A DNA stretch of 64,000 nt from Escherichia coli (GCF_003334765.1 NZ_QOWT01000009.1), one strand, 5' to 3'. Positions 1 through 62,694 are shown, counted from the first letter of the stretch. Translations and numbers: made by a program. The notes: generated by a model from the letters alone, not told the origin.

Positions 1-1405
1 CCAGCTCGATGATGTGTTCCGCAATCAAATGACTGGTTTTGTGGGTGGTCAGCGTTTCAACAAACGATTTGTCGATTTTCAAAATATCGACATTCAATGA
101 TTTAAGGTTATGCAAGTTAGAGTAGCCAATACCAAAATCATCAATTGCCACTTCGTAACCTGCCTGGCGGAAAGCCAGAATAATCGGCGTCATTTTGTCA
201 ACATCAAGAAATGCATGCTCAGTCACTTCAAATTTAATTTGCTGCGGACGCACCGCGTATTGCTCTGTTTTCTGATTGATTCGCGCTATCAACCGTGACG
301 TATGAAAATCGGAGGCCGACAGGTTAATAGAAACATAGCGATCTGCATGTGTTGCCAGGTAATCGCCCAGATCGCGGAAGACATTATCAATAACATAATC
401 AGTTATCTGTTCTATCATCCCCTCCTTTTCTGCCAGCGGAATAAACTCTGCCGGATTCATTATTTGCCCCTGCTCACCAGGCCAACGTAACAACGCTTCA
501 GCGCCGATACATTTTTCTGTTTTGATATCGATTATTGGCTGGTAATAAAGACAAAGTTGATGTTTTTCGAGGGCGCGTTGCAATTTACGTTTGGGAGATA
601 AATAGTTTTGTCGAATACGTAGCCAGAGTAATAGCAGAACAAGACTCCCCAAAATACCGGCGGGCAACGCAAAAATAAGATGATTATAAAAATGGGTTAT
701 AAGACGTTGATATGAAGTCGCAACAATGGCTGCAATTGGGCGTTTTGTCGAATAAACTGTCGCATATAAATAGCCATTTCTTTGTACGGTTAAATCCTTC
801 AAATGAATCAGCGGAGAAAACGTTGCTGCCGAGGCCTCTTTGCTTAACGAGAAAAAGGTTTTCGTCACCGTATCATACACACCCCATTGCAATGTCGGGT
901 CATCAGACATCACTTCACTCCAGAAGAGAGGGTTGATAACCGCCACATAATTTCCCCGCTGCATATAGGTCATTTTATAGCCAGAGAAAAAAGGCGTATC
1001 GCGGTAATAATAGATAGAAACGTTAGGTTCACGCTTATAATCGGCCGGTGCAATCGTATAGCCGTTTACAGGCGCTATCAGCGATGAGCATAAAAAATGG
1101 TTATCACGGGCATAGATCAATTCATTAATATAAAGATAGCCACGAATAATATTCAACATTCGCTTTTGATGGGCTGGAGTGCAAACTTGCCCCTGATAGC
1201 GTTCAGCTGCATCGCTCACTAAATCTGCCTGGCGAATGACCAGCTCGGATTTATCCAGTGCCAGTTGAGCAAAGGTTCGGAGCTGATTATTCACTTCTGA
1301 TTTTGCCCAAAGGAAGGCAATCCATAGCGAAAGAATGATGGGAAAGAGAACTAAAAAGATAATGCCCGGCAACGCCAGTAATTGGTGTCGTGCACGATGA
1401 CTCAT
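1..1405 (-). CDS. pdeC: c-di-GMP phosphodiesterase (CSS-motif sensor + EAL domain); C-terminal end cut by window edge
   Basis: Minus-strand frame open from ATG at 1405-1403 ([17 protein letters not shown]...) to position 1; translation carries EAL signatures ([18 protein letters not shown]). Absent from ORF track because its stop lies outside the window. Confidence 0.85.
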
Positions 1406-1834
1406 TGCTATCAATTTCCTGCCTGTTTATACCCGGCCATTGCAAGGTGAAAACCCTGGGTACCGACGTCTTTAGATAAATCTTACGGTATAAATAGCAC
1501 TTTTGCCTGATTTGAAATTGATACCTTTCTAATCGTCACCTGGATGAAAATAATTCATTGATATTCAAAATTAATTTCCTACAGGAATGCAGAGGCGGCG
1601 GGAAGATATGCCCTTAATGCCACTGAAAAACCACATAATCTGTACAGCAATAAAAGTCACGGCCTAATATGGCTAACAAACAATCAATTGTGATATAGTT
1701 CACAAAATTAATGAAACAAACAGAGTGTTTCATTTTTGTGTTCTGCAAGCCCCGCGATAGCCAGAGTGTACCACGCCTCCCGTGAACAACGCCGCGCTGT
1801 CCAGGGCATCGGCTCTTTTCAGAGGAATTGTTTG

Positions 1835-2116
1835 ATGGCTACCCTCACCACTGGCGTGGTTCTTCTTCGCTGGCAACTTCTTAGTGCCGTAATGATGTTT
1901 CTGGCCAGCACACTCAACATCCGTTTTCGTCGGTCTGATTATGTCGGGCTTGCGGTGATCAGCAGCGGTCTGGGCGTTGTTTCCGCCTGTTGGTTCGCAA
2001 TGGGGTTGCTTGGCATCACAATGGCGGACATCACCGCTATCTGGCACAACATCGAGTCGGTGATGATAGAAGAGATGAATCAGACACCGCCACAATGGCC
2101 AATGATTTTGACCTGA
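1835..2116 (+). CDS. yjcB: small inner-membrane protein, uncharacterised (93 aa)
   Basis: Internal ATG at 1835 of track ORF 1736..2116 gives MATLTTGVVLLRWQLL..., hydrophobic, 93 aa; position between pdeC and ssb. Confidence 0.75.
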   Translation: MATLTTGVVLLRWQLLSAVMMFLASTLNIRFRRSDYVGLAVISSGLGVVSACWFAMGLLGITMADITAIWHNIESVMIEEMNQTPPQWPMILT

Positions 2117-2122
2117 TACGTA

Positions 2123-2151
2123 GAAGCCTCCATAACGGAGGCTTCTTTTTT
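2123..2151 (+). terminator. rho-independent terminator downstream of yjcB (convergent with ssb)
   Basis: Hairpin gaagcctcc-ataa-cggaggcttc followed by TTTTTT. Confidence 0.7.
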
Positions 2152-2214
2152 ATGGCTGGCAGATGCTTTAATCATCCACCTTAAAACAATATAACCTATT
2201 GTTTTAATGACAAA

Positions 2215-2751
2215 TCAGAACGGAATGTCATCATCAAAGTCCATCGGCGGCTCGTTAGACGGCGCTGCCGGAGCGGACTGCTGCGGGCGAGACTGCGCGC
2301 CGCCGCTGAACTGATTGCCACCCTGCGGCTGCTGAGGCTGACCCCAACCGCCCTGCGGCTGACCACCACCGATATTGCCACCTGCCGGAGCGCCACCACC
2401 CTGACGACCACCCAGCATCTGCATGGTGCCGCCAACGTTCACCACGACTTCTGTGGTGTAGCGATCCTGACCGGATTGATCGGTCCATTTACGGGTACGC
2501 AGCTGACCTTCGATATAAACCTGAGAACCTTTACGCAGATATTCGCTCGCCACTTCTGCCAGTTTGCCGAACAGCACAACGCGGTGCCATTCAGTCTGTT
2601 CTTTCATCTCGCCGGTCGCTTTATCACGCCAGGATTCGGAAGTAGCCAGCGTAATGTTGGCAACTGCGCCACCATTTGGCATGTAGCGTACTTCCGGGTC
2701 CTGACCCAGATTACCAACGAGAATAACCTTGTTTACGCCTCTGCTGGCCAT
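2215..2751 (-). CDS. ssb: single-stranded DNA-binding protein (178 aa)
   Basis: Track ORF 2215..2814; true start ATG at 2751 gives [30 protein letters not shown]... and the C-terminal DFDDDIPF tail. Confidence 0.97.
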
Positions 2752-2903
2752 GTTCGTGTCTCCTGAAAAAAATCGTTCTGAATAAGTGTAAACGCGCGAT
2801 TGTACCATTACCAATAGCGCTTTTACTATGTTGTGACCTCGGTTCCGGGAAACAAACCTGGCCAGACATTGTTACACAACACTCCGGGTAATGCATTCCA
2901 ATA

Positions 2904-2919
2904 CTGTATATTCATTCAG
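2904..2919. promoter_or_regulatory. LexA (SOS) box in the divergent ssb-uvrA control region
   Basis: CTGTATATTCATTCAG fits CTG-N10-CAG LexA consensus, about 85 bp upstream of uvrA ATG. Confidence 0.85.
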
Positions 2920-3004
2920 GTCAATTTGTGTCATAATTAACCGTTTGTGATCGCCGGTAGCACCATGCCACCGGGCAAAAAAGCGTTTAATCCGGGAAAG
3001 GTGA

Positions 3005-5827
3005 ATGGATAAGATCGAAGTTCGGGGCGCCCGCACCCATAATCTCAAAAACATCAACCTCGTTATCCCCCGCGACAAGCTCATTGTCGTGACCGGGCTT
3101 TCGGGTTCTGGCAAATCCTCGCTCGCTTTCGACACCTTATATGCCGAAGGGCAGCGCCGTTACGTTGAATCCCTTTCCGCCTACGCGCGGCAGTTTCTGT
3201 CACTGATGGAAAAGCCGGACGTCGATCATATTGAGGGGCTTTCTCCTGCCATCTCAATTGAGCAGAAATCGACGTCTCATAACCCGCGTTCTACGGTGGG
3301 GACAATCACCGAAATCCACGACTATTTGCGTTTGTTATTCGCCCGCGTTGGCGAGCCGCGCTGTCCGGACCACGACGTCCCGCTGGCGGCGCAAACCGTC
3401 AGCCAGATGGTGGATAACGTGCTGTCGCAGCCGGAAGGCAAGCGTCTGATGCTACTCGCGCCAATCATTAAAGAGCGCAAAGGCGAACACACCAAAACGC
3501 TGGAGAACCTGGCAAGCCAGGGCTACATCCGTGCTCGTATTGATGGCGAAGTCTGCGATCTTTCCGATCCGCCAAAACTGGAACTGCAAAAGAAACATAC
3601 CATTGAAGTGGTGGTTGATCGCTTCAAGGTGCGTGACGATCTTACCCAACGTCTTGCCGAGTCATTTGAAACCGCGCTGGAGCTTTCCGGTGGTACCGCG
3701 GTAGTGGCGGATATGGACGACCCGAAAGCGGAAGAGCTGCTGTTCTCCGCCAACTTCGCCTGCCCAATTTGCGGCTACAGTATGCGTGAACTGGAGCCGC
3801 GACTGTTTTCGTTTAACAACCCGGCGGGGGCCTGCCCGACCTGCGACGGCCTTGGCGTACAGCAATATTTCGATCCTGATCGAGTGATCCAGAATCCGGA
3901 ACTGTCGCTGGCTGGTGGTGCGATCCGTGGCTGGGATCGCCGCAACTTCTATTATTTCCAGATGCTGAAATCGCTGGCAGATCACTATAAGTTCGACGTC
4001 GAAGCGCCGTGGGGCAGCCTGAGCGCGAACGTGCATAAAGTGGTGTTGTACGGTTCTGGCAAAGAAAACATTGAATTCAAATACATGAACGATCGTGGCG
4101 ATACCTCCATTCGTCGTCATCCGTTCGAAGGCGTGCTGCATAATATGGAGCGCCGCTATAAAGAGACGGAATCCAGCGCGGTACGCGAAGAATTAGCCAA
4201 GTTTATCAGTAATCGTCCGTGCGCCAGCTGCGAAGGGACGCGTCTGCGTCGGGAAGCGCGCCACGTGTATGTCGAGAATACGCCGCTGCCTGCTATCTCC
4301 GACATGAGCATTGGTCATGCGATGGAATTCTTCAACAATCTCAAACTCGCAGGTCAGCGGGCGAAGATTGCAGAAAAAATCCTTAAAGAGATCGGCGATC
4401 GTCTGAAATTCCTCGTTAACGTCGGCCTGAATTACCTGACGCTTTCCCGCTCGGCAGAAACGCTTTCTGGCGGTGAAGCACAGCGTATCCGTCTGGCGAG
4501 CCAGATTGGTGCGGGCCTGGTTGGCGTTATGTACGTGCTGGACGAGCCGTCTATCGGCCTGCACCAGCGTGATAACGAGCGCCTGTTGGGTACGCTTATC
4601 CATCTGCGCGATCTCGGTAATACCGTGATTGTGGTGGAGCACGACGAAGACGCAATTCGCGCCGCTGACCATGTGATCGACATTGGCCCGGGCGCAGGTG
4701 TTCACGGCGGTGAAGTGGTCGCAGAAGGTCCGCTGGAAGCGATTATGGCGGTGCCGGAGTCGTTGACCGGGCAGTACATGAGCGGCAAACGCAAGATTGA
4801 AGTGCCGAAGAAACGCGTTCCGGCGAATCCGGAAAAAGTGCTGAAGCTGACAGGCGCACGCGGCAACAACCTGAAGGACGTGACGCTGACGCTGCCGGTG
4901 GGTCTGTTTACCTGCATCACCGGGGTTTCAGGTTCCGGTAAATCGACGCTGATTAACGACACACTGTTCCCGATTGCCCAACGCCAGTTGAATGGGGCGA
5001 CCATCGCCGAACCAGCACCGTATCGCGATATTCAGGGGCTGGAGCATTTCGATAAAGTGATCGATATCGACCAAAGCCCAATTGGTCGTACTCCACGTTC
5101 TAACCCGGCGACCTATACCGGCGTGTTTACGCCTGTGCGCGAACTGTTTGCGGGCGTACCGGAATCCCGTGCGCGCGGCTATACGCCGGGACGTTTCAGC
5201 TTTAACGTTCGTGGCGGACGCTGCGAGGCCTGTCAGGGCGATGGCGTGATCAAAGTGGAGATGCACTTCCTGCCGGATATCTACGTGCCGTGCGACCAGT
5301 GCAAAGGTAAACGCTATAACCGTGAAACGCTGGAGATTAAGTACAAAGGCAAAACCATCCACGAAGTGCTGGATATGACCATCGAAGAGGCGCGTGAGTT
5401 CTTTGATGCCGTACCTGCACTGGCGCGTAAGCTGCAAACGTTGATGGACGTTGGCCTGACGTACATTCGACTGGGGCAGTCCGCAACCACCCTTTCAGGC
5501 GGTGAAGCCCAGCGCGTGAAGCTGGCGCGTGAACTGTCAAAACGCGGCACCGGGCAGACGCTGTATATTCTCGACGAGCCGACCACCGGTCTGCACTTCG
5601 CCGATATTCAGCAACTGCTCGACGTACTGCATAAACTGCGCGATCAGGGCAACACCATTGTGGTGATTGAGCACAATCTCGACGTGATCAAAACCGCTGA
5701 CTGGATTGTCGACCTGGGACCAGAAGGCGGCAGTGGTGGCGGCGAGATCCTCGTCTCCGGTACGCCAGAAACCGTCGCGGAGTGCGAAGCATCACACACG
5801 GCACGCTTCCTTAAGCCGATGCTGTAA
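3005..5827 (+). CDS. uvrA: excinuclease ABC subunit A (940 aa)
   Basis: Track ORF 940 aa, [19 protein letters not shown]..., two ABC ATPase modules ([18 protein letters not shown]) and zinc-finger cysteines. Confidence 0.98.
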
Positions 5828-5832
5828 TCGTT

Positions 5833-5863
5833 AAGGCCGCTTTCTGAGCGGCCTTTTCCTTTC
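5833..5863. terminator. bidirectional rho-independent terminator between uvrA and yjbR
   Basis: Hairpin aaggccgc-tttctga-gcggcctt then T-rich run, immediately after uvrA TAA. Confidence 0.7.
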
Positions 5864-6218
5864 AGAGTTGCACCAGCAATTTACGTTTTTCTTCCGGCAG
5901 TAAATTCACCGCCTGCTGATAAGACGCATCCACCAGATAATAGATTTGCGAATCTGGCAGCGAACCGTCGAGATACACGGTGCTCCAGTGCGCTTTATTC
6001 AGATGGCGGCTTGGACGCACATCGCTGTGCTGCTGACGTAGCAGCTCCGCCAGCTCCGGGCTGGTTTTCAGCGAAACAGCTGGGCGATTTTCTACTTCTT
6101 TCACCATCGCAAACAGTACATCTTCCACTTTGATCTGCGTCGCTTTCCAGTCATTATGCACGCTCTGTTCTGCGCCTGGTTTTGCCATGCAATATTGTAG
6201 CAACTCCGAAATGGTCAT
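5862..6218 (-). CDS. yjbR: uncharacterised protein YjbR (118 aa)
   Basis: Track ORF 118 aa MTISELLQYCMAKPGAEQ...; located just after yjbQ stop, likely an operon. Confidence 0.85.
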   Translation of the reverse strand: MTISELLQYCMAKPGAEQSVHNDWKATQIKVEDVLFAMVKEVENRPAVSLKTSPELAELLRQQHSDVRPSRHLNKAHWSTVYLDGSLPDSQIYYLVDASYQQAVNLLPEEKRKLLVQL

Positions 6219-6221
6219 TTT

Positions 6222-6638
6222 TTACTCCCCTTGTAGTGTCGCGATGATGCGACGCGATCCGCCGTGGATGCGATGTTCCCCCAGCCAAATGCCTTGCCAG
6301 GTGCCGGTCTGAATACGCCCTTTATGCACCGGCAATACAAGCGATGTTCCCAGCATTGAGGATTTGATATGAGAAGGCATATCGTCTGCTCCCTCATAGT
6401 CATGCTCATAATTTCCGTTGTCGGGAACGGTGCGGAGGAAAAAACGCTCCATGTCGTGGCGTACGGTGGGATCGCAGTTCTCATTAAGTGTCAGAGAGGC
6501 GGAGGTATGTTGCAGCAACAGATGCAGTAAGCCGATGTTAACGCGCGGCATATCAGCCAGCTGATTCAGAATTTCATCCGTTACCAGATGAAACCCACGA
6601 GATTTGGCGCTAAGCGTGAGCGTCTTTTGATACCACAT
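6222..6638 (-). CDS. yjbQ: UPF0047 family protein YjbQ (138 aa)
   Basis: Track ORF 138 aa [23 protein letters not shown]... Confidence 0.85.
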
Positions 6639-6748
6639 GTGCTGCTCCTTGATAAAACTCTCTTAATCAGTTTGCAGCAAGACAGCGAAAGGATAAAGGT
6701 GTGATTAAAAAAACAGCATTCGGGAGAGCATCACGCTCTCCCGCTCTG

Positions 6749-7741
<993 letters not shown>

Positions 7742-7863
7742 TTAATGAACTTAATGATACAGCATTACAAAAACAATCGAAGTTTATAAAGATGATTTCT
7801 GATTGACCAGCCCCCTACCCTACAATGGTGATTAATTTTATTACTCGCGATGGAGATGATGAT

Positions 7864-8067
7864 ATGAATATATCATATGTGAATAGCAACAAAACGACAT
7901 CTTTACCTGTTGAGCTAGATGCACTAAATAATAAAGATATCTCTTATGCCAAAGATTTCTTTTTATACATAGAAACACAGTTAAAAATTGCAAAAGATTT
8001 TTTAGACCTGGAGAAGAAGTATCAAGTTCTATTGCAAGTAAAGTTTTTCACGCATTTATTGATTTAG
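7864..8067 (+). CDS. yjbS: small hypothetical protein in AT-rich spacer (67 aa); possibly a gene remnant
   Basis: ATG at 7864 inside track ORF 7825..8067 (MNISYVNSNKTTSLP...); low GC; downstream short ORF fragments in shifted frames. Confidence 0.45.
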   Translation: MNISYVNSNKTTSLPVELDALNNKDISYAKDFFLYIETQLKIAKDFLDLEKKYQVLLQVKFFTHLLI

Positions 8068-8568
8068 TTAACAAAATCAGGGGTAAGAAAGACTTTATGT
8101 ATATTTGCACGCTTTGCTGTTTTGCCGAGGAGGTTAAAGGTGATTATTCTCATTACAGGACCTTTTTATTTGATATTGGTAATCAATATAAGGTTAAACT
8201 TACACAAAGCGGAAAAAAGAGTTCTCTTTAACATTAGAATTTAACGATACTATAATTGAATCTCAGAAAGTCACAGGCAATAAGGCAAAGCATATTCTTG
8301 AGGATATAGAAATATTCTATCGTAACAAACCCGATACTTATTATTAAATTTAATAATGGTTAGATGTGCAGAAATTATTACTCCACCCAAAAAAACAGGA
8401 TAAGGAATTCCAGATAATTGGGATAAGCTTAACAATAAAAGAACTAACAACGTTTATTATCTCTCACGTAGAACGATGGCATCAAAAAAATCATCTATAA
8501 AGAAAGAGTGAAAGCGACGACAGTTTAATTTCACTGCAGGCTGGGTAGCTCCAGCCTGCTTTCCTGCA

Positions 8569-9762
8569 TTACATCACCGCAGCAAACGCCTTTGCCACAC
8601 GTTGTACATTTGCCGTATTTAACCCGGCGACACACATGCGACCGCTGGCGATGAGATAGACACCAAATTCTTCACGTAGTCGGTCAACCTGAGCGGCACT
8701 TAAACCGGTATAACTGAACATGCCGCGCTGATTAAGCAGATAATCGAAATTGCGTTCTGGCATCTCTGTGCTTAATACCTTCACCAATTCCTGACGCATT
8801 GCCAGAATGCGAGTACGCATCTCTTCTACTTCCGCCAGCCAGCTGGCTTTCAATGCCTCGTCATTCAGCACTGCAGCCACCACCTGCGCACCAAAATTCG
8901 GCGGGCTGGAGTAGTTGCGGCGAACTGTTGCTTTCAATTGCCCCAGTACGCGGCCAGCGGCTTCGGCATCTTCACACATAACAGAAAGTCCGCCGACGCG
9001 CTCGCCGTAAAGGGAGAAAATTTTCGAGAACGAATTGCTCACCAGAGCGGGTAATCCAGCGCTGGCAATGGCGCGAATAGCGTAGGCATCCTCTTCCATA
9101 CCGGCACCAAATCCTTGATAGGCAATATCGAGGAATGGAATAAGCTCGCGGGCTTTGAGAATTTCAATCACCGCATCCCACTGATCATTAGTGAGATCGG
9201 CACCCGTTGGGTTGTGGCAACATGGATGCAGCAACACAATACTGCGGGCAGGTAATGTTTTCAGCGTCGCCAACAGGTCATTAAAGCGCACGCCGTTAGT
9301 CGCTTCGTCATACCAGGGGTAAGTACTCACTTCGAATCCAGCCCCGGCGAATATTGCTACGTGGTTTTCCCAGGTAGGATCGCTGACCCAGACACCTGAT
9401 TCCGGGAAGTAGCGTTTCAGGAAATCCGCGCCCACTTTCAATGCCCCGGAGCCGCCAAGGGTTTGAATGGTTGCTACGCGCTGTTGTTTCAGTACCGGAT
9501 GGTCCGCACCAAACAGCAGCGGCGCAATGGCATGGCGATAGCAGTTAAGCCCTTCCATCGGTAAATAAAGCGAAGCGCCATGAGGCTGCGCATTCAGGCG
9601 CGCTTCCGCCTCCGCCACGGCTTGCAGTTGTGGAATAATTCCGTCTTCGTTGTAGTACAGACCGATACTTAAATTCACTTTGTCGCTGCGAGGGTCTTCT
9701 TTAAAACGCTCCATAAGCGTAAGAATCGGGTCGCCAGCGTAGGCGTCAACTTTTTGAAACAC
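8569..9762 (-). CDS. tyrB: aromatic-amino-acid aminotransferase (397 aa), GTG start
   Basis: Track ORF 8569..9804; N-terminus (V)[19 protein letters not shown] begins at GTG 9762-9760; PLP-lysine motif [17 protein letters not shown]. Confidence 0.95.
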
Positions 9763-40970: not shown

Positions 40971-41378
40971 AACAATTTCCCTTCATTGAATGAATGGAGA
41001 TTTACCCAAAAACATTTCGGGCGGGATCGAGTATACACAACTAAAGCATGCGAATTACGGCGCGGGGAATTAGCGATGGCGTTTTAGGATAATTGGAATG
41101 AATATCAAATATAAGTTTCAACTTATATTTAAATAACAATAAAAATCATAAACTTAAAATAAAAACAAAAGCAATTAATCTGCGTATTTTCCGAAATAAA
41201 CAACGATTAAAAATCTATTTTAGGATTAACCTCATGGTATGATTTCCGTTAAATCACAGACAAGGGAATTTATCTGATAAAAAAATGCCGACATAACGTC
41301 GGCATTGTTATTAAGGTTATTTAATCAATCGTGCTATGTATTAATTGCCGAATACGATGTACATATCGGCATCGACCT

Positions 41379-41455
41379 GTAGGCCTGATAAGACGCGACC
41401 GCGTCGCATCAGGCATCGGTTGCCGGATGCGGCGTGAACGCCTTATCCGGCCTAC
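41379..41455. repeat. BIME / REP pair between pgi and yjbE
   Basis: gtaggcctgataagacgcgaccgcgtcgcatcaggc ... gccggatgcggcgtgaacgccttatccggcctac. Confidence 0.9.
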
Positions 41456-43301: not shown

Positions 43302-43642
43302 TTGACAACCGCCCCGCTCACCCTTTATTTATAAATGTACTACCTGCGCTAGCGCAGGCCAGAAGAGGCGCGTTGCCCAAGTAACGGTGTTGGAGGAGCC
43401 AGTCCTGTGATAACACCTGAGGGGGTGCATCGCCGAGGTGATTGAACGGCTGGCCACGTTCATCATCGGCTACAGGGGCTGAATCCCCTGGGTTGTCACC
43501 AGAAGCGTTCGCAGTCGGGCGTTTCGCAAGTGGTGGAGCACTTCTGGGTGAAAATAGTAGCGAAGTATCGCTCTGCGCCCACCCGTCTTCCGCTCTTCCC
43601 TTGTGCCAAGGCTGAAAATGGATCCCCTGACACGAGGTAGTT
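43302..43642 (+). promoter_or_regulatory. lysC promoter and lysine riboswitch (L-box) leader
   Basis: TTGACA at 43302-43307; long structured 5' leader containing conserved L-box-like segments (GAAGAGGCGCG, GGAGGAGCCAG, GGTGCATCGCCGAGGTG, CTGGGTTGTCACC) ending at the lysC ATG 43643. Confidence 0.85.
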
Positions 43643-54388: not shown

Positions 54389-58280
<3,892 letters not shown>

Positions 58281-58298
58281 TTAGCGCCCTCATCAGGA

Positions 58299-58555
58299 GC
58301 AGAGAATTGCCGGATGCGGCGTAAACGCCTTATCCAGCCTACGTTCGGCAACGGTTGTAGGCATGATAAGACGCGCAAGCGTCGCATCAGGCATCGTGCA
58401 CCGATTGCCGGATGCGGCGTAAATGCCTTATCCGGCCTACGTTCGGCAACGGCTGTAGGCATGATAAGACGCGCAAGCGTCGCATCAGGCATCGTGCACC
58501 GATTGCCGGATGCGGCGTGAACGCCTTATCCGGCCTACAGTCAGCAACGGTTGTT
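58299..58555. repeat. tandem BIME array (about 2.5 copies of a 98-bp unit, each with a REP pair) in the aceA-aceK intergenic region
   Basis: Unit ttgccggatgcggcgtaaacgccttatcc(a/g)gcctacgttcggcaacgg(t/c)tgtaggcatgataagacgcgcaagcgtcgcatcaggcatcgtgcaccga starts at 58307, 58405 and 58503 (third truncated); 3 mismatches between copies 1 and 2. Confidence 0.95.
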
Positions 58556-58560
58556 GTTGC

Positions 58561-59865
58561 TTAGAACTGCGATTCTTCAGTGGAGCCGGTCAGCGCGGTG
58601 ACTGAAGACGTGCCGCCCTGAATAATAGTCGTCACTTTATCGAAGTAACCTGTACCCACTTCCTGCTGGTGAGATACGAAGGTATAGCCATCTTTCGCGG
58701 CGGCAAATTCCGGCTGCTGCACTTTCTCAACGTAGTGCTTCATACCCTCGCCCTGGGCATAGGCGTTTGCCAGGTCAAACATGTTGAACCACATGCTGTG
58801 GATACCTGCCAGGGTGATGAACTGGAACTTGTAGCCCATATCCGACAGCTGCTGCTGGAAGCTGGCAATAGTTTTGTCGTCGAGGTTTTTCTGCCAGTTG
58901 AACGACGGCGAGCAGTTATAAGCCAGCAGTTTGCCCGGATATTTCGCGTGGATAGCTTGTGCAAAGCGACGCGCCAGTTCCAGATCCGGCGTGGAGGTTT
59001 CACACCAGACCAGGTCAGCATATGGCGCATACGCCAGGCCACGGCTGATCGCTTGCTCAATGCCCGCATGAGTACGGAAGAAGCCTTCACTGGTACGCTC
59101 GCCGGTAATAAATTCGCTGTCATACGGGTCGCAATCGGAGGTGATCAGATCCGCCGCATCAGCATCGGTACGGGCAACCAGCAGGGTTGGAACGCCCGTC
59201 ACGTCAGCTGCCAGACGCGCCGCGACCAGTTTCTGAATAGCTTCCTGAGTTGGCACTAAAACTTTGCCGCCCATGTGACCGCATTTCTTCACTGACGCCA
59301 GCTGATCTTCGAAGTGAACTGCCGCTGCACCGGCTTCAATCATCGCTTTCATCAGTTCAAAGGCATTCAGGACACCGCCAAAACCGGCTTCCGCATCGGC
59401 AACGATCGGCAGGAAGTAATCGACATAGCGCGGATCGCCCGGCTCAATGCCCGCGGACCATTGGATCTGATCGGCACGACGGAAGGTGTTGTTGATCCGC
59501 TCCACCACAGCTGGCACCGAGTTTGCCGGATAGAGCGACTGATCCGGATACATGCTGGCCGCCAGGTTAGCGTCCGCCGCTACCTGCCATCCCGACAGAT
59601 AGACTGCTTCAATACCCGCTTTCGCCTGTTGCAGCGCCTGACCGCCAGTCAGTGCGCCGAGGCTGTTGATGTAGCCTTTTTTCGACTCACCGTGCAGCAG
59701 ACGCCACATTTTCGCTGCGCCCAGTTGCGCCAGCGTGCATTCAGGATTGACTGAACCGCGTAATTTCACCACATCTTCCGCACTGTATGGGCGAGTAATG
59801 CCTTCCCAACGCGGTTGAGTCCACTCTTTCTGTAATTCTTCAATTTGTTGTGTACGGGTTTTCAT
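58561..59865 (-). CDS. aceA: isocitrate lyase (434 aa)
   Basis: ATG at 59865 inside track ORF 58561..59880 gives [38 protein letters not shown]...; catalytic loop KKCGHMGGK. Confidence 0.98.
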
Positions 59866-59894
59866 GTGCAGATGCTCCATAGTTATGTGGTGGT

Positions 59895-61496
59895 TTACGC
59901 TAACAGGCGGTAGCCTGGCAGGGTCAGGAAATCAATTAACTCATCGGAAGTGGTGATCTGTTCCATCAAGCGTGCGGCATCGTCAAAACGCCCCTGGGAG
60001 AAACGTTCTTCGCCCAGTTCGCTGGCAATGACTTTCATCTCTTCGCCCAGCATCTGGCGGAACAAGGCTTTGGTCACCGGTTTGCCATTGCTCAACGTTT
60101 TTTGATGATGGATCCACTGCCAGATCGAGGTACGGGAAATTTCAGCCGTCGCCGCATCTTCCATCAGGCCATAAATCGGCACACAGCCGTTGCCAGAGAT
60201 CCACGCTTCGATGTACTGCACAGCCACGCGAATGTTGGCGCGCATACCTTCTTCGGTGCGTTCACCATCACAAGGTGCCAGCAGCTGATCGGCAGTAATC
60301 GGCGCGTCTTGTTCGCGCATCACTTCAAGCTGATTTTTACGGGAGCCGAGAATGTCGTTGAATACCGCCATTGCCGTGTCCGCAAGGCCTGGGTGAGCGA
60401 TCCATGTGCCATCGTGACCGTTATTGGCTTCCAGCGATTTATCCGCTTTTACTTTGTTGAGCACCTGGTTATTGTGCTCTTCATCTTTGCTCGGAATAAA
60501 CGCCGCCATGCCGCCCATCGCAAAAGCACCGCGTTTATGGCAGGTTTTAATCAACAGGCGTGAGTAAGCATTCAGGAATGGTTTATCCATCGTCACTGCC
60601 TGTCTGTCTGGCAGGACGCGATCGGGATAGTTTTTCAACGTTTTGATATAGCTGAAGATGTAATCCCAACGACCGCAGTTCAGACCAACAATATGGTCAC
60701 GCAGCGCGTGAAGGATTTCATCCATCTGGAACACGGCGGGCAGCGTTTCAATCAGCAACGTCGCCTTGATGGTGCCGCGCGGCAGATTAAAGCGATCTTC
60801 TGCATAGCTGAAGACTTCGCTCCACCAGGCCGCTTCCTGCCAGGACTGGGTTTTCGGCAGATAGAAATAGGGACCACTGCCCTTTGCCAACAGTGCCTGA
60901 TAGTTGTGGAAGAAATAGAGCGCAAAATCAAACAGGCTGCCGGGGATTGCCTCACCACGCCAGGTGACATGTTTTTCCGGCAAGTGCAGACCGCGTACCC
61001 GACAAATCAAAACCGCTGGATTGGGCTTGAGCTGGTAAATTTTGCCTGCTTCATTGGTGTAACTGATGGTGCCGTTAACCGCATCACGCAGGTTAATTTG
61101 CCCGTCGATCACTTTGTTCCAGTCTGGTGCCAGTGAATCTTCGAAATCGGCCATAAAGACTTTCACATTGGCGTTGAGCGCGTTGATCACCATCTTGCGC
61201 TCTACCGGGCCAGTTATCTCTACGCGGCGGTCTTCTAAGTCCGCAGGAATCCCGCGAATTTTCCAATCAGCATCGCGAATGGAAGCTGTTTCCGAAATAA
61301 AATCAGGCAACGTTCCGTTATCAATATCTTGCTGCTGCTGAATGCGCGCTGCCAGAAGTTTATTGCGTTGTGGCGTAAAATGCGTCACCAGCTCAGTCAG
61401 AAATTCTACCGCTTCGGCAGTAAGAATTTGCTTCTCCTGCTCGCCATACGGCCTTGTGAAAGCCAGTTCATCGGTTGTTGTTGCCTGTTCAGTCAT
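59895..61496 (-). CDS. aceB: malate synthase A (533 aa)
   Basis: ATG at 61496 inside track ORF 59895..61514 gives [33 protein letters not shown]... Confidence 0.98.
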
Positions 61497-61589
61497 CGTG
61501 CAGCTCCTCGTCATGGATCCGAAAACTTCCCCACTGTGAACGAAGGATCGTTGTGCTCTTTTCGTTCAGCACAACTAAGACTACTCATT

Positions 61590-61764: not shown

Positions 61765-62694
61765 TTAATCCAGCGTTGGATTCATGTGCCGTAGATCGTA
61801 TGGCGTGATCTGGTAGACGTAATAGTTGAGCCAGTTGGTAAACAGTAAATTACCGTGACTACGCCAGCTCGCTCGCGGTGTATTTTGCGGATCATTGTGC
61901 GGGAAATAGTTATACGGTACATCCGGGTCTAGTCCGGCTTCCACATCGCGGAAAAATTCCTGCGCCAGCGTTTGCGCATCATATTCGGGATGGCCCGTCA
62001 CAAAGGCAATGCGCTTATCTTTACTGGCAAACAGATATGCATCCCCTTCTTCCGTCTCTGCCAGAATTTCCAGATCGGTGTAATCACGAATCAACGCTGC
62101 CGGAAAGTCAGCATAGCGCGAATGCGGTGCCAGGAATGAATCATCAAAGCCACGCGTCAGAAGCGCATGAGGATGGAGAATATGATGCTCGTAAACGCCA
62201 GAGAGTTTGTCGGTGCGAGTTTGCTTAGGAATGCCGTAGAGGATATTGAGCGCGGCCTGTACCGCCCAGCAGACAAACAGCGTCGAGGTGACGTGATCTT
62301 TCGACCACTCCAGCACCTGTTTGATCTGCGGCCAGTAAGCGACATCATTAAACTCCACCAGGCCCAGCGGCGCACCAGTTACAATCAAACCGTCAAAGTT
62401 CTGATCCTGAATATCTTCAAAGTTACAGTAGAAGTTGTTCAGATGCTCTGCGGGCGTGTTGCGCGATTCACGGGAATCGATGCGCAACAGCTGAATATCG
62501 ACCTGCAAAGGTGAGTTTGAAAGCAGGCGCAGAAACTGATTTTCAGTTTCAATCTTCTTCGGCATCAGGTTAAGGATCAGAACCTTAAGTGGACGAATTT
62601 CCTGACCAGACGCACGAGAAGTTGTCATCACAAAGACGTTTTCTTCACGCAAGAAATTGACGGCGGGTAGCTCGTCCGGCACACGAATCGGCAT
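61765..62694 (-). CDS. metA: homoserine O-succinyltransferase (309 aa)
   Basis: Track ORF 309 aa [45 protein letters not shown]... Confidence 0.98.

Follow-up and report, generated by a model that had tools for sequence, protein, structure and literature searches.

The DNA analyzed here, referred to as the window, is a 64,000-nt stretch of Escherichia coli sequence (GCF_003334765.1 NZ_QOWT01000009.1), and all coordinates are counted within it. The window contains the aceBAK operon, in which aceB (59895-61514) precedes aceA, and metA (61765-62694) lies farther upstream. Between aceA and aceK, on the transcribed minus strand, is a 280-bp spacer (58281-58560) that carries a tandem array of REP sequences. 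The array is extragenic, being located wholly between the aceA stop codon and the aceK start codon, and its components are listed in Table 1.

Table 1. Components of the aceA-aceK region of the window, in order of increasing coordinate.
Feature	Coordinates	Strand	Evidence or remark
aceK (isocitrate dehydrogenase kinase/phosphatase), downstream gene	56544-58280	-	NCBIfam PRK02946, 944.2 bits vs cut-off 488
aceK leader	58281-58308	-	Sequence, MFE, pair probabilities
First full unit	58306-58403	.	Tandem Repeats Finder, repeat search, REP pattern; naRNA4 match 58360-58437
Y REP 1	58309-58342	+	First unit
S linker, first unit	58343-58356	.	
Z2 REP 1	58357-58392	- (inverted vs Y)	First unit
l linker after Z2 REP 1	58393-58406	.	
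Second full unit (Y2, S, Z2, l)	58404-58501	.	Tandem Repeats Finder, repeat search
Y REP 2	58407-58440	+	Second unit
S-type short linker GTTCGGCAACGGCT, Y to Z2	58441-58454	.	Sequence
Z2 REP 2	58455-58490	-	REP pattern match, 1 mismatch
l-type linker ATCGTGCACCGATT, Z2 to Y	58491-58504	.	Inside full-length naRNA4 match; resembles REP325 Y-Z2 linker
Y REP 3, nearest aceA, in truncated unit 58502-58554	58505-58538	+	naRNA4 match 58458-58535
Non-REP mini-hairpin GCAAC-AACAACC-GUUGC	58544-58560	-	Paired in MFE structures
aceA stop codon	58563-58561	-	
aceA (isocitrate lyase), upstream gene	58561-59880	-	NCBIfam PRK15063, 802.7 bits vs cut-off 562; annotated aceA in matching RefSeq genomes

Several other features occur in the window. 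A 728-aa ORF (54389-56575, +) is convergent with aceK, overlaps its 3′ end by ~30 nt, and has no NCBIfam match; judging by its position, it is presumably arpA (K-12 map; also PMC5435950). A whole-window Rfam scan also identifies a lysine riboswitch (43355-43551, +; 99.5 bits), the STnc430 sRNA (41167-41316, +; 72 bits), and a 5S rRNA gene (63817-63932, -; 90.4 bits).

Tandem Repeats Finder resolves the repeats of the spacer into a single array (58306-58554) with a period of 98, 2.5 copies, 94% matches, no indels, and a score of 449. By repeat search, the two full units are 97% identical, with mismatches at 3 of 98 positions, while the incomplete third copy shows 91% identity over 53 nt. A preliminary description of the region, made from its sequence, had proposed a head-to-tail array of a 98-bp unit with two inverted REPs per unit, three mismatches between the first two copies, and a truncated third copy. 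Each of these points is borne out, and the unit starts it proposed (58307, 58405, and 58503) differ from the computed ones by a single base, purely a matter of register. Each full unit contains one Y REP on the plus strand and one inverted Z2 REP, and the plus-strand order of the whole array is Y-S-Z2-l-Y-S-Z2-l-Y, i.e., five REPs. The Y palindrome is 34 nt long (plus strand, GCCGGATGCGGCGTAAACGCCTTATCCrGCCTAC), the Z2 palindrome on the opposite strand is 36 nt long (GCCTGATGCGACGCTTGCGCGTCTTATCATGCCTAC), and 14-nt linkers lie on either side of each Z2 REP. A degenerate REP pattern has five matches in the 64-kb window, as compared to 0.00 expected from 100 shuffles.

Both ends of the array have characteristic borders. 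On the aceA side, Y REP 3 gives way to a diverged tail and then to a 17-nt mini-hairpin adjoining the stop codon, which is found in every REP-bearing E. coli allele examined. On the aceK side, the leader includes a Shine-Dalgarno sequence, GAGGG (58291-58287), 6 nt ahead of the AUG. Three ORFs that run across the array (58256-58492, -; 58314-58520, +; 58412-58564, +) are treated as by-products of the repeats.

BIME-2 elements are defined by y and z2 REPs in tandem copies, an S linker, s/l/r flanks, and a copy number that varies among strains (PMC3333891; PMC1187871). In the aceA-aceK spacer, three Y REPs (+) alternate with two Z2 REPs (-) in tandem copies joined by short linkers, of which the S motif is assigned from its length and position rather than from a consensus. 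The number of tandem units at this locus differs among strains, with at least eight length classes in 118 sampled rows, and the locus is a target of IS1397, as seen from an insertion in strain IAI39. Moreover, Rfam model RF02564 (naRNA4), which represents the 77-nt Y-l-Z2 unit of REP325, has two full-length matches to the minus strand of the array, at 58458-58535 (85.6 bits) and 58360-58437 (81.8 bits), and both exceed the gathering score of 59.5. The array is therefore a BIME-2, a textbook kind of element. It is ordinary: the kind of element is catalogued, and published tables for K-12 already include this locus among the BIME-2 elements. The MG1655 RefSeq record, in the copy consulted, has no repeat feature annotated in the aceA-aceK spacer.

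Two relatives are useful for comparison. The K-12 aceA-aceK BIME-2 (PMC6379681) shares its locus, REP types, linkers, aceK leader, and post-aceA mini-hairpin with the window allele, and 800 nt of flank are 100% identical. The K-12 spacer is 182 bp long with three REPs, whereas that of the window is 280 bp long with five; that is, adding one 98-bp Y-S-Z2-l unit to the K-12 allele yields that of the window. REP325 (the naRNA1-6 locus, yjdM-yjdN) is the reference BIME-2 behind RF02564 and is likewise a tandem Y-linker-Z2-linker array transcribed from its upstream gene. In MG1655 it has a period of 100 and 5.8 copies, compared to the 98 and 2.5 of the aceA-aceK array, with nearly the same Y and Z2 sequences. 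The sole difference in plan is the second linker, which is AAATTCCCGCACCCTCC in REP325 and AGCCGTTGCCGAAC in the aceA-aceK array. HU binding and nucleoid condensation have been demonstrated experimentally for the products of REP325 only (PMC4550694).

To survey allele lengths, flanks alone, with the array removed, were used as a query against all complete E. coli genomes, and spacer length was taken from the span of the hit. The locus was found in 5,426 of 5,426 genomes, with both flanks within joining distance in 5,421. In the five genomes without a joined aceK-aceA match, a few more IS1397-like disruptions may exist. Lengths were read from two samples drawn independently and at even spacing, with 59 genomes apiece; the samples share one record and have near-identical length distributions, and the combined set has 118 rows. 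The commonest spacer is that of 280 bp (56/118, 47%; Y-Z2-Y-Z2-Y). Spacers of 182 bp (including K-12 and its laboratory derivatives) and of 183 bp (including O157:H7) each account for 12 rows and have the structure Y-Z2-Y. Three rows have spacers of 84 or 85 bp, the 84-bp form retaining one Y REP. Representative alleles of 124 bp (12 rows), 215 bp (four), and 313 bp (one) belong to the same REP series but have, beside aceK, an additional Z REP that is partial. Copy number is thus far from invariant, with lengths of 48 to 313 bp, and the suggestion that this is a likely site of variation between strains holds.

The shortest class has a 48-bp spacer (18/118, ~15%), seen in MS20654 and 17 other sampled genomes. 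It contains no REP; its sequence is unrelated and includes a small hairpin, GCCCCU/AGGGGC. This allele may be the ancestral state, as its length is like that of the spacer in many other genera of Enterobacterales. In the three REP-less records with annotation examined, the annotated aceK is four codons shorter (574 aa).

The three SNPs that separate units 1 and 2 of the window serve as markers for the history of the units. The lone full unit of K-12 is a chimera, with the unit-1 alleles at SNPs 1 and 2 and the unit-2 allele at SNP 3, as would result from unequal crossing over by 98 bp somewhere between 58336 and 58355. In two unrelated 182-bp strains, OkiPb01714 and SC476, the unit is pure unit 1, while the Y REP of the 84-bp allele is itself chimeric. 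Since the junctions differ between lineages, units have been lost repeatedly and sequence has been exchanged between them. Full 280-bp spacers were compared from O114:H49 strain 90-9280, 2 HS-C, and BL21; one is identical to that of the window, and two differ from it solely by unit-internal SNPs. Two 280-bp haplotypes result, of which BL21 and 2 HS-C share the one not found in the window. Taken together, these alleles show that units are gained and lost recurrently, via unequal recombination or slippage between near-identical repeats.

An insertion sequence has also entered the locus in one strain. In strain IAI39 (NC_011750.1, locus 1382-3000), aceA-aceK is split by IS1397, a member of the IS3 family, and the element interrupts the second Y REP exactly in its loop (...GCGGCGTAAA, then the IS, then AAATGCCTTATCC...). 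This is in keeping with the known specificity of IS1397 for REP sequences and their loops (PMC1525189).

As RNA, the array is highly structured. The minus-strand transcript of 58270-58570 has a predicted folding energy of -142 kcal/mol, compared to -109.2 +/- 5.3 kcal/mol for dinucleotide shuffles (z = -6.25; 0 of 100 as good), which agrees with the strong stability anticipated in the preliminary description. Neighboring Y and Z2 REPs are predicted either to fold separately or to pair together as a hairpin of ~88 nt, and in the same frame the K-12 allele folds at -108 kcal/mol versus -158 kcal/mol for the window allele. The hairpins do begin just past the aceA stop codon, as had been proposed, with 22 nt between the stop codon (which ends at 58561) and the first REP (58538).

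Some familiar roles for such hairpins were considered for this locus and rejected. A terminator scan found no intrinsic terminator on either strand of 58281-58560 and no REP with a following U-tract, and GC-rich hairpins that lack a U-tract do not qualify as Rho-independent terminators. REP-induced ribosome stalling is described, in the work of Liang et al. 2015 as relayed by PMC12306157, as needing a REP no more than 15 nt from the stop codon; the 22-nt distance places the aceA stop codon outside this limit. The RNase III site designated "aceK" (PMC5371410) maps to MG1655 position 4219637, ~1 kb inside aceK and outside the BIME.

The nearest terminator-like site on the minus strand is at 57942-57921, 338 nt into aceK, with a dG of -12.3 kcal/mol. 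It consists of the hairpin CCGCUCG-CUUACUCC-CGAGCGG followed by the U-run CUUUUUAUCUUU. Among the loci inspected, the stem is conserved with a variable loop in Escherichia, Klebsiella, Citrobacter, Enterobacter, Pluralibacter, and Buttiauxella, and the hairpin is absent from Pectobacterium, Serratia, and Yersinia. This intragenic hairpin is a candidate for the site of the published "premature termination in aceK".

Chung et al., in 1993, reportedly ascribed the downshift of aceK to inefficient translation of the gene plus premature termination. The ratio of aceB, aceA, and aceK products is given as about 0.3:1:0.003 in PMC5435950, which cites that work for it. In RNA-seq of BL21(DE3), the aceK signal was far below that of aceA, and the same study refers to "premature transcriptional termination ... 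in aceK" (PMC5435950). A BL21 chromosome has the 280-bp spacer with five REPs. A literature search directed at the aceA-aceK REPs themselves returned nothing beyond this transcriptome study that addresses the aceK drop.

Accessibility of the aceK start was modeled as a possible route by which the array could influence expression. In predicted structures (MFE and pair probabilities), the aceK Shine-Dalgarno sequence and start codon are paired with the 5′ half of the Y REP closest to aceK. Opening energies were computed for positions -13 to +3 with 60, 80, or 120 nt of upstream sequence. The aceK start requires 10.2, 10.4, and 8.0 kcal/mol, respectively, in the 280-bp allele of the window, and exactly the same values in the 182-bp allele of K-12 and the 183-bp allele of 20R2R, while the REP-less 48-bp allele requires 7.7-9.1 kcal/mol. 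By this model, the contribution of the REPs to the opening cost is small, and the number of units has no predicted effect. The idea that REPs occlude the ribosome-binding site of aceK is accordingly retained as no more than a weak lead, the opening energy being nearly as high without REPs and identical with three or five. Across 43 species, the predicted paired fraction is 0.50 at the aceK start versus 0.39 at the aceA start, a modest gap.

As a separate observation, the opening energies of the ribosome-binding regions in the operon rise from aceA (3.3-4.2 kcal/mol) to aceB (7.0-7.1 kcal/mol) to aceK, a qualitative parallel to the product ratio of ~1:0.3:0.003.

While the preliminary description was right about the tandem REP array, its stable hairpins, and its variation among strains, a causal role for the array in the large drop in aceK expression is not established. 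About 15% of sampled genomes have no REP at the site, the hairpins have no U-tract, a terminator-like site is present inside aceK, and the BL21(DE3) study places premature termination in that gene. Nor does anything found here support the array, or its unit number, as what sets the aceA:aceK ratio; the predicted opening cost of aceK is identical with three and five REPs. The REP-less alleles, the equal start accessibility, and the intragenic terminator-like site thus argue against a large effect of the array on this ratio.

A hairpin barrier in the operon mRNA can reasonably be proposed. Newbury and Higgins are said to have described intercistronic REPs of the malE-malF type as mRNA stabilizers. 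The aceA-aceK array resembles these in that REPs lie between a strong upstream and a weak downstream cistron of one operon, and it differs in that the work cited on aceK implicates translation together with termination inside the gene. Its hairpins are directly downstream of the higher-expressed cistron (expression ratio from PMC5435950), as is expected of an intercistronic stabilizer. REP hairpins in general act as exonuclease barriers and attenuators, and in other operons they are known to protect the mRNA upstream of them (review PMC12306157). By analogy, the array may protect the upstream aceBA mRNA.

The same spacer was examined in other Enterobacterales using one genome per species, and aceA lies directly upstream of aceK in 80 of 80 loci with aceK. 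With an overlap in Edwardsiella ictaluri set aside, spacers in the remaining 79 species range from 41 to 542 nt (median 78), and in many genera the spacer is ~48 nt, the same length as in REP-less E. coli. Hairpin stability relative to dinucleotide shuffles has a median z of -2.85, with z <= -2 in 57 of the 79 species, and a U-rich tail follows the stem in 19. Other Escherichia have BIMEs of different lengths at the same place: E. albertii has 542 nt, E. whittamii 308 nt, and a further Escherichia sp. 116 nt. Spacers of other genera mostly hold GC-rich stem-loops whose sequence families are mutually unrelated. For instance, CCCTCTCCC...GGGAGAGGG palindromes occur in Klebsiella, Enterobacter, Lelliottia, Raoultella, and others, genus-specific REP pairs in Citrobacter and Kluyvera, GAGCCTGC-TTAT-GCAGGCTC (RNA: GAGCCUGC-UUAU-GCAGGCUC) in Serratia and Yersinia, and CCGGCCAGC...GCTGGCCGG in Pectobacterium, Brenneria, and Dickeya. 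These hairpins occupy the same position as the E. coli array, but most are single hairpins rather than arrays.

Two details from this survey can be added. The CCCTCTCCC/GGGAGAGGG palindromes are sometimes present in two or three copies, and in many cases the Shine-Dalgarno sequence of aceK is overlapped by their 3′ arm. In the contig of Edwardsiella ictaluri ATCC 33202 (2440-2520), the aceA stop is missing and the frame ends in TGATG overlapping the aceK start, with no spacer; at 90%, the identity of its AceK to the E. coli protein is higher than would be expected for Edwardsiella.

The recurrence of unrelated stem-loops suggests that a hairpin at the aceA-aceK position is favored, or at least readily tolerated, among species that are phylogenetically non-independent. 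The hairpins of other genera could equally be explained by a preference of repeats for settling downstream of genes.

The best explanation of these observations, to which a probability of roughly 0.78 is assigned, is that the locus carries a five-REP BIME-2 that acts as a hairpin barrier in RNA, is cleaved by gyrase as DNA, and has a copy number that is probably near neutral. The array would be transcribed inside the aceBAK mRNA, where its GC-rich stem-loops would block 3′-to-5′ exonucleases and perhaps serve as a weak attenuator. RNA containing aceBA would then outlast or outnumber RNA containing aceK, and this effect would add to an aceK ribosome-binding site that appears intrinsically poorly accessible. 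For the RNA role, a single hairpin would probably suffice, and unit number would probably be close to neutral. The REP-less 48-bp allele in ~15% of sampled genomes indicates that the array is dispensable, with a small hairpin retained in its place. As DNA, the array would be subject to gyrase cleavage in vivo, which others have shown for the K-12 allele. It may best be regarded as a selfish or tolerated repeat at a position where a hairpin is useful.

The array could instead be maintained chiefly for its activity as DNA. In this alternative, the array would be a strong gyrase site independent of transcription, or a contact for HU or cruciform structures, that relieves supercoiling and organizes the nucleoid in the vicinity of a strongly induced operon, with RNA effects being incidental. 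In Topo-seq data (supplementary table of PMC6379681), the 131-bp K-12 aceA-aceK BIME-2 has 8/2/0/2 gyrase cleavage sites under four conditions. For comparison, sucB-sucC has 6/4/0/5 and tldD-yhdP has 35/13/3/10, while most BIME-2 in the table rows shown have 0, which places aceA-aceK among the few with several. In the same study, gyrase prefers y REPs, and BIME-2 signals increase under rifampicin. Like aceA-aceK, the sucB-sucC and tldD-yhdP elements are Y/Z2 arrays that lie between genes and are cleaved by gyrase at several sites in vivo; their loci and unit numbers differ, and the aceA-aceK data pertain solely to the three-REP allele of K-12. The Y-l-Z2 units of REP325 additionally participate in HU/naRNA4-mediated condensation (PMC4550694). 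Weighing against a primary DNA-level role, REP-less alleles are common in E. coli, and hairpins other than REPs occupy the same position in other genera, which fits an RNA-level role better. A mainly DNA-level role is rather unlikely; it is compatible with the hairpin-barrier explanation and not exclusive of it.

It is also conceivable, though improbable, that copy number acts as a rheostat, with each 98-bp unit cutting read-through into aceK or survival of its RNA and so tuning AceA:AceK and the set-point of isocitrate dehydrogenase phosphorylation. The range of lengths within E. coli, extended to 542 bp by E. albertii, the recurrence of independent unit losses, and the stronger folding that comes with more units are all in its favor. 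Yet the predicted opening energy of the aceK translation start is the same for three- and five-REP alleles and little different with none, and length classes largely track classes of flank identity, which favors phylogeny over ecology. Length polymorphism is, moreover, general to BIME-2 across loci (PMC1187871; PMC3333891). Comparably doubtful is the further proposal that a structured element decoupling aceA from aceK is selected throughout the Enterobacterales. In E. coli lineages, a BIME-2 would have taken the place of an ancestral ~48-nt hairpin spacer that persists in ~15% of sampled genomes, with the proximal Y REP pairing with the aceK Shine-Dalgarno sequence and AUG and unit number modulating the amounts of aceK RNA and AceK. 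If this were true, strains would differ heritably, and in a rapidly mutable way, in their isocitrate dehydrogenase phosphorylation set-point.

There is little to recommend the view that the array encodes dedicated trans-acting small RNAs of the naRNA4 family. The two RF02564 matches above the gathering score are consistent with it, but the model also exceeds this score at three further BIME units of the window (27482-27552, 31711-31781, and 41382-41452, -). It therefore detects any Y/Z REP pair rather than a specific sRNA gene, and because it matches every BIME unit in the window, an independent sRNA gene in the array is rejected. No promoter-like site that could serve the array was found on the minus strand, and the array is inside the aceBAK transcript. 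Finally, while tandem repeats are generally difficult to assemble, an assembly artefact or chance similarity as the source of the extra unit has a negligible probability given the Tandem Repeats Finder score, the unit-internal SNPs in two of the three 280-bp spacers compared and the identity of the third to the window, and the presence of this length in nearly half of the sampled complete genomes, from many sources.

The annotation of the spacer is thereby settled as a BIME-2, and as neither an sRNA gene nor a set of ORFs, a result with little weight beyond annotation. The locus could be used as a small typing marker. Were unit number to affect the level of AceK, a classic metabolic switch would be touched, although nothing found here points in that direction. 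The K-12 allele emerges as atypical, given that the five-REP, 280-bp spacer is the commonest in the sample. The alleles with zero, one, three, and five REPs, together with their variants, form a natural series that is well suited to testing the long-assumed role of REPs within aceBAK.
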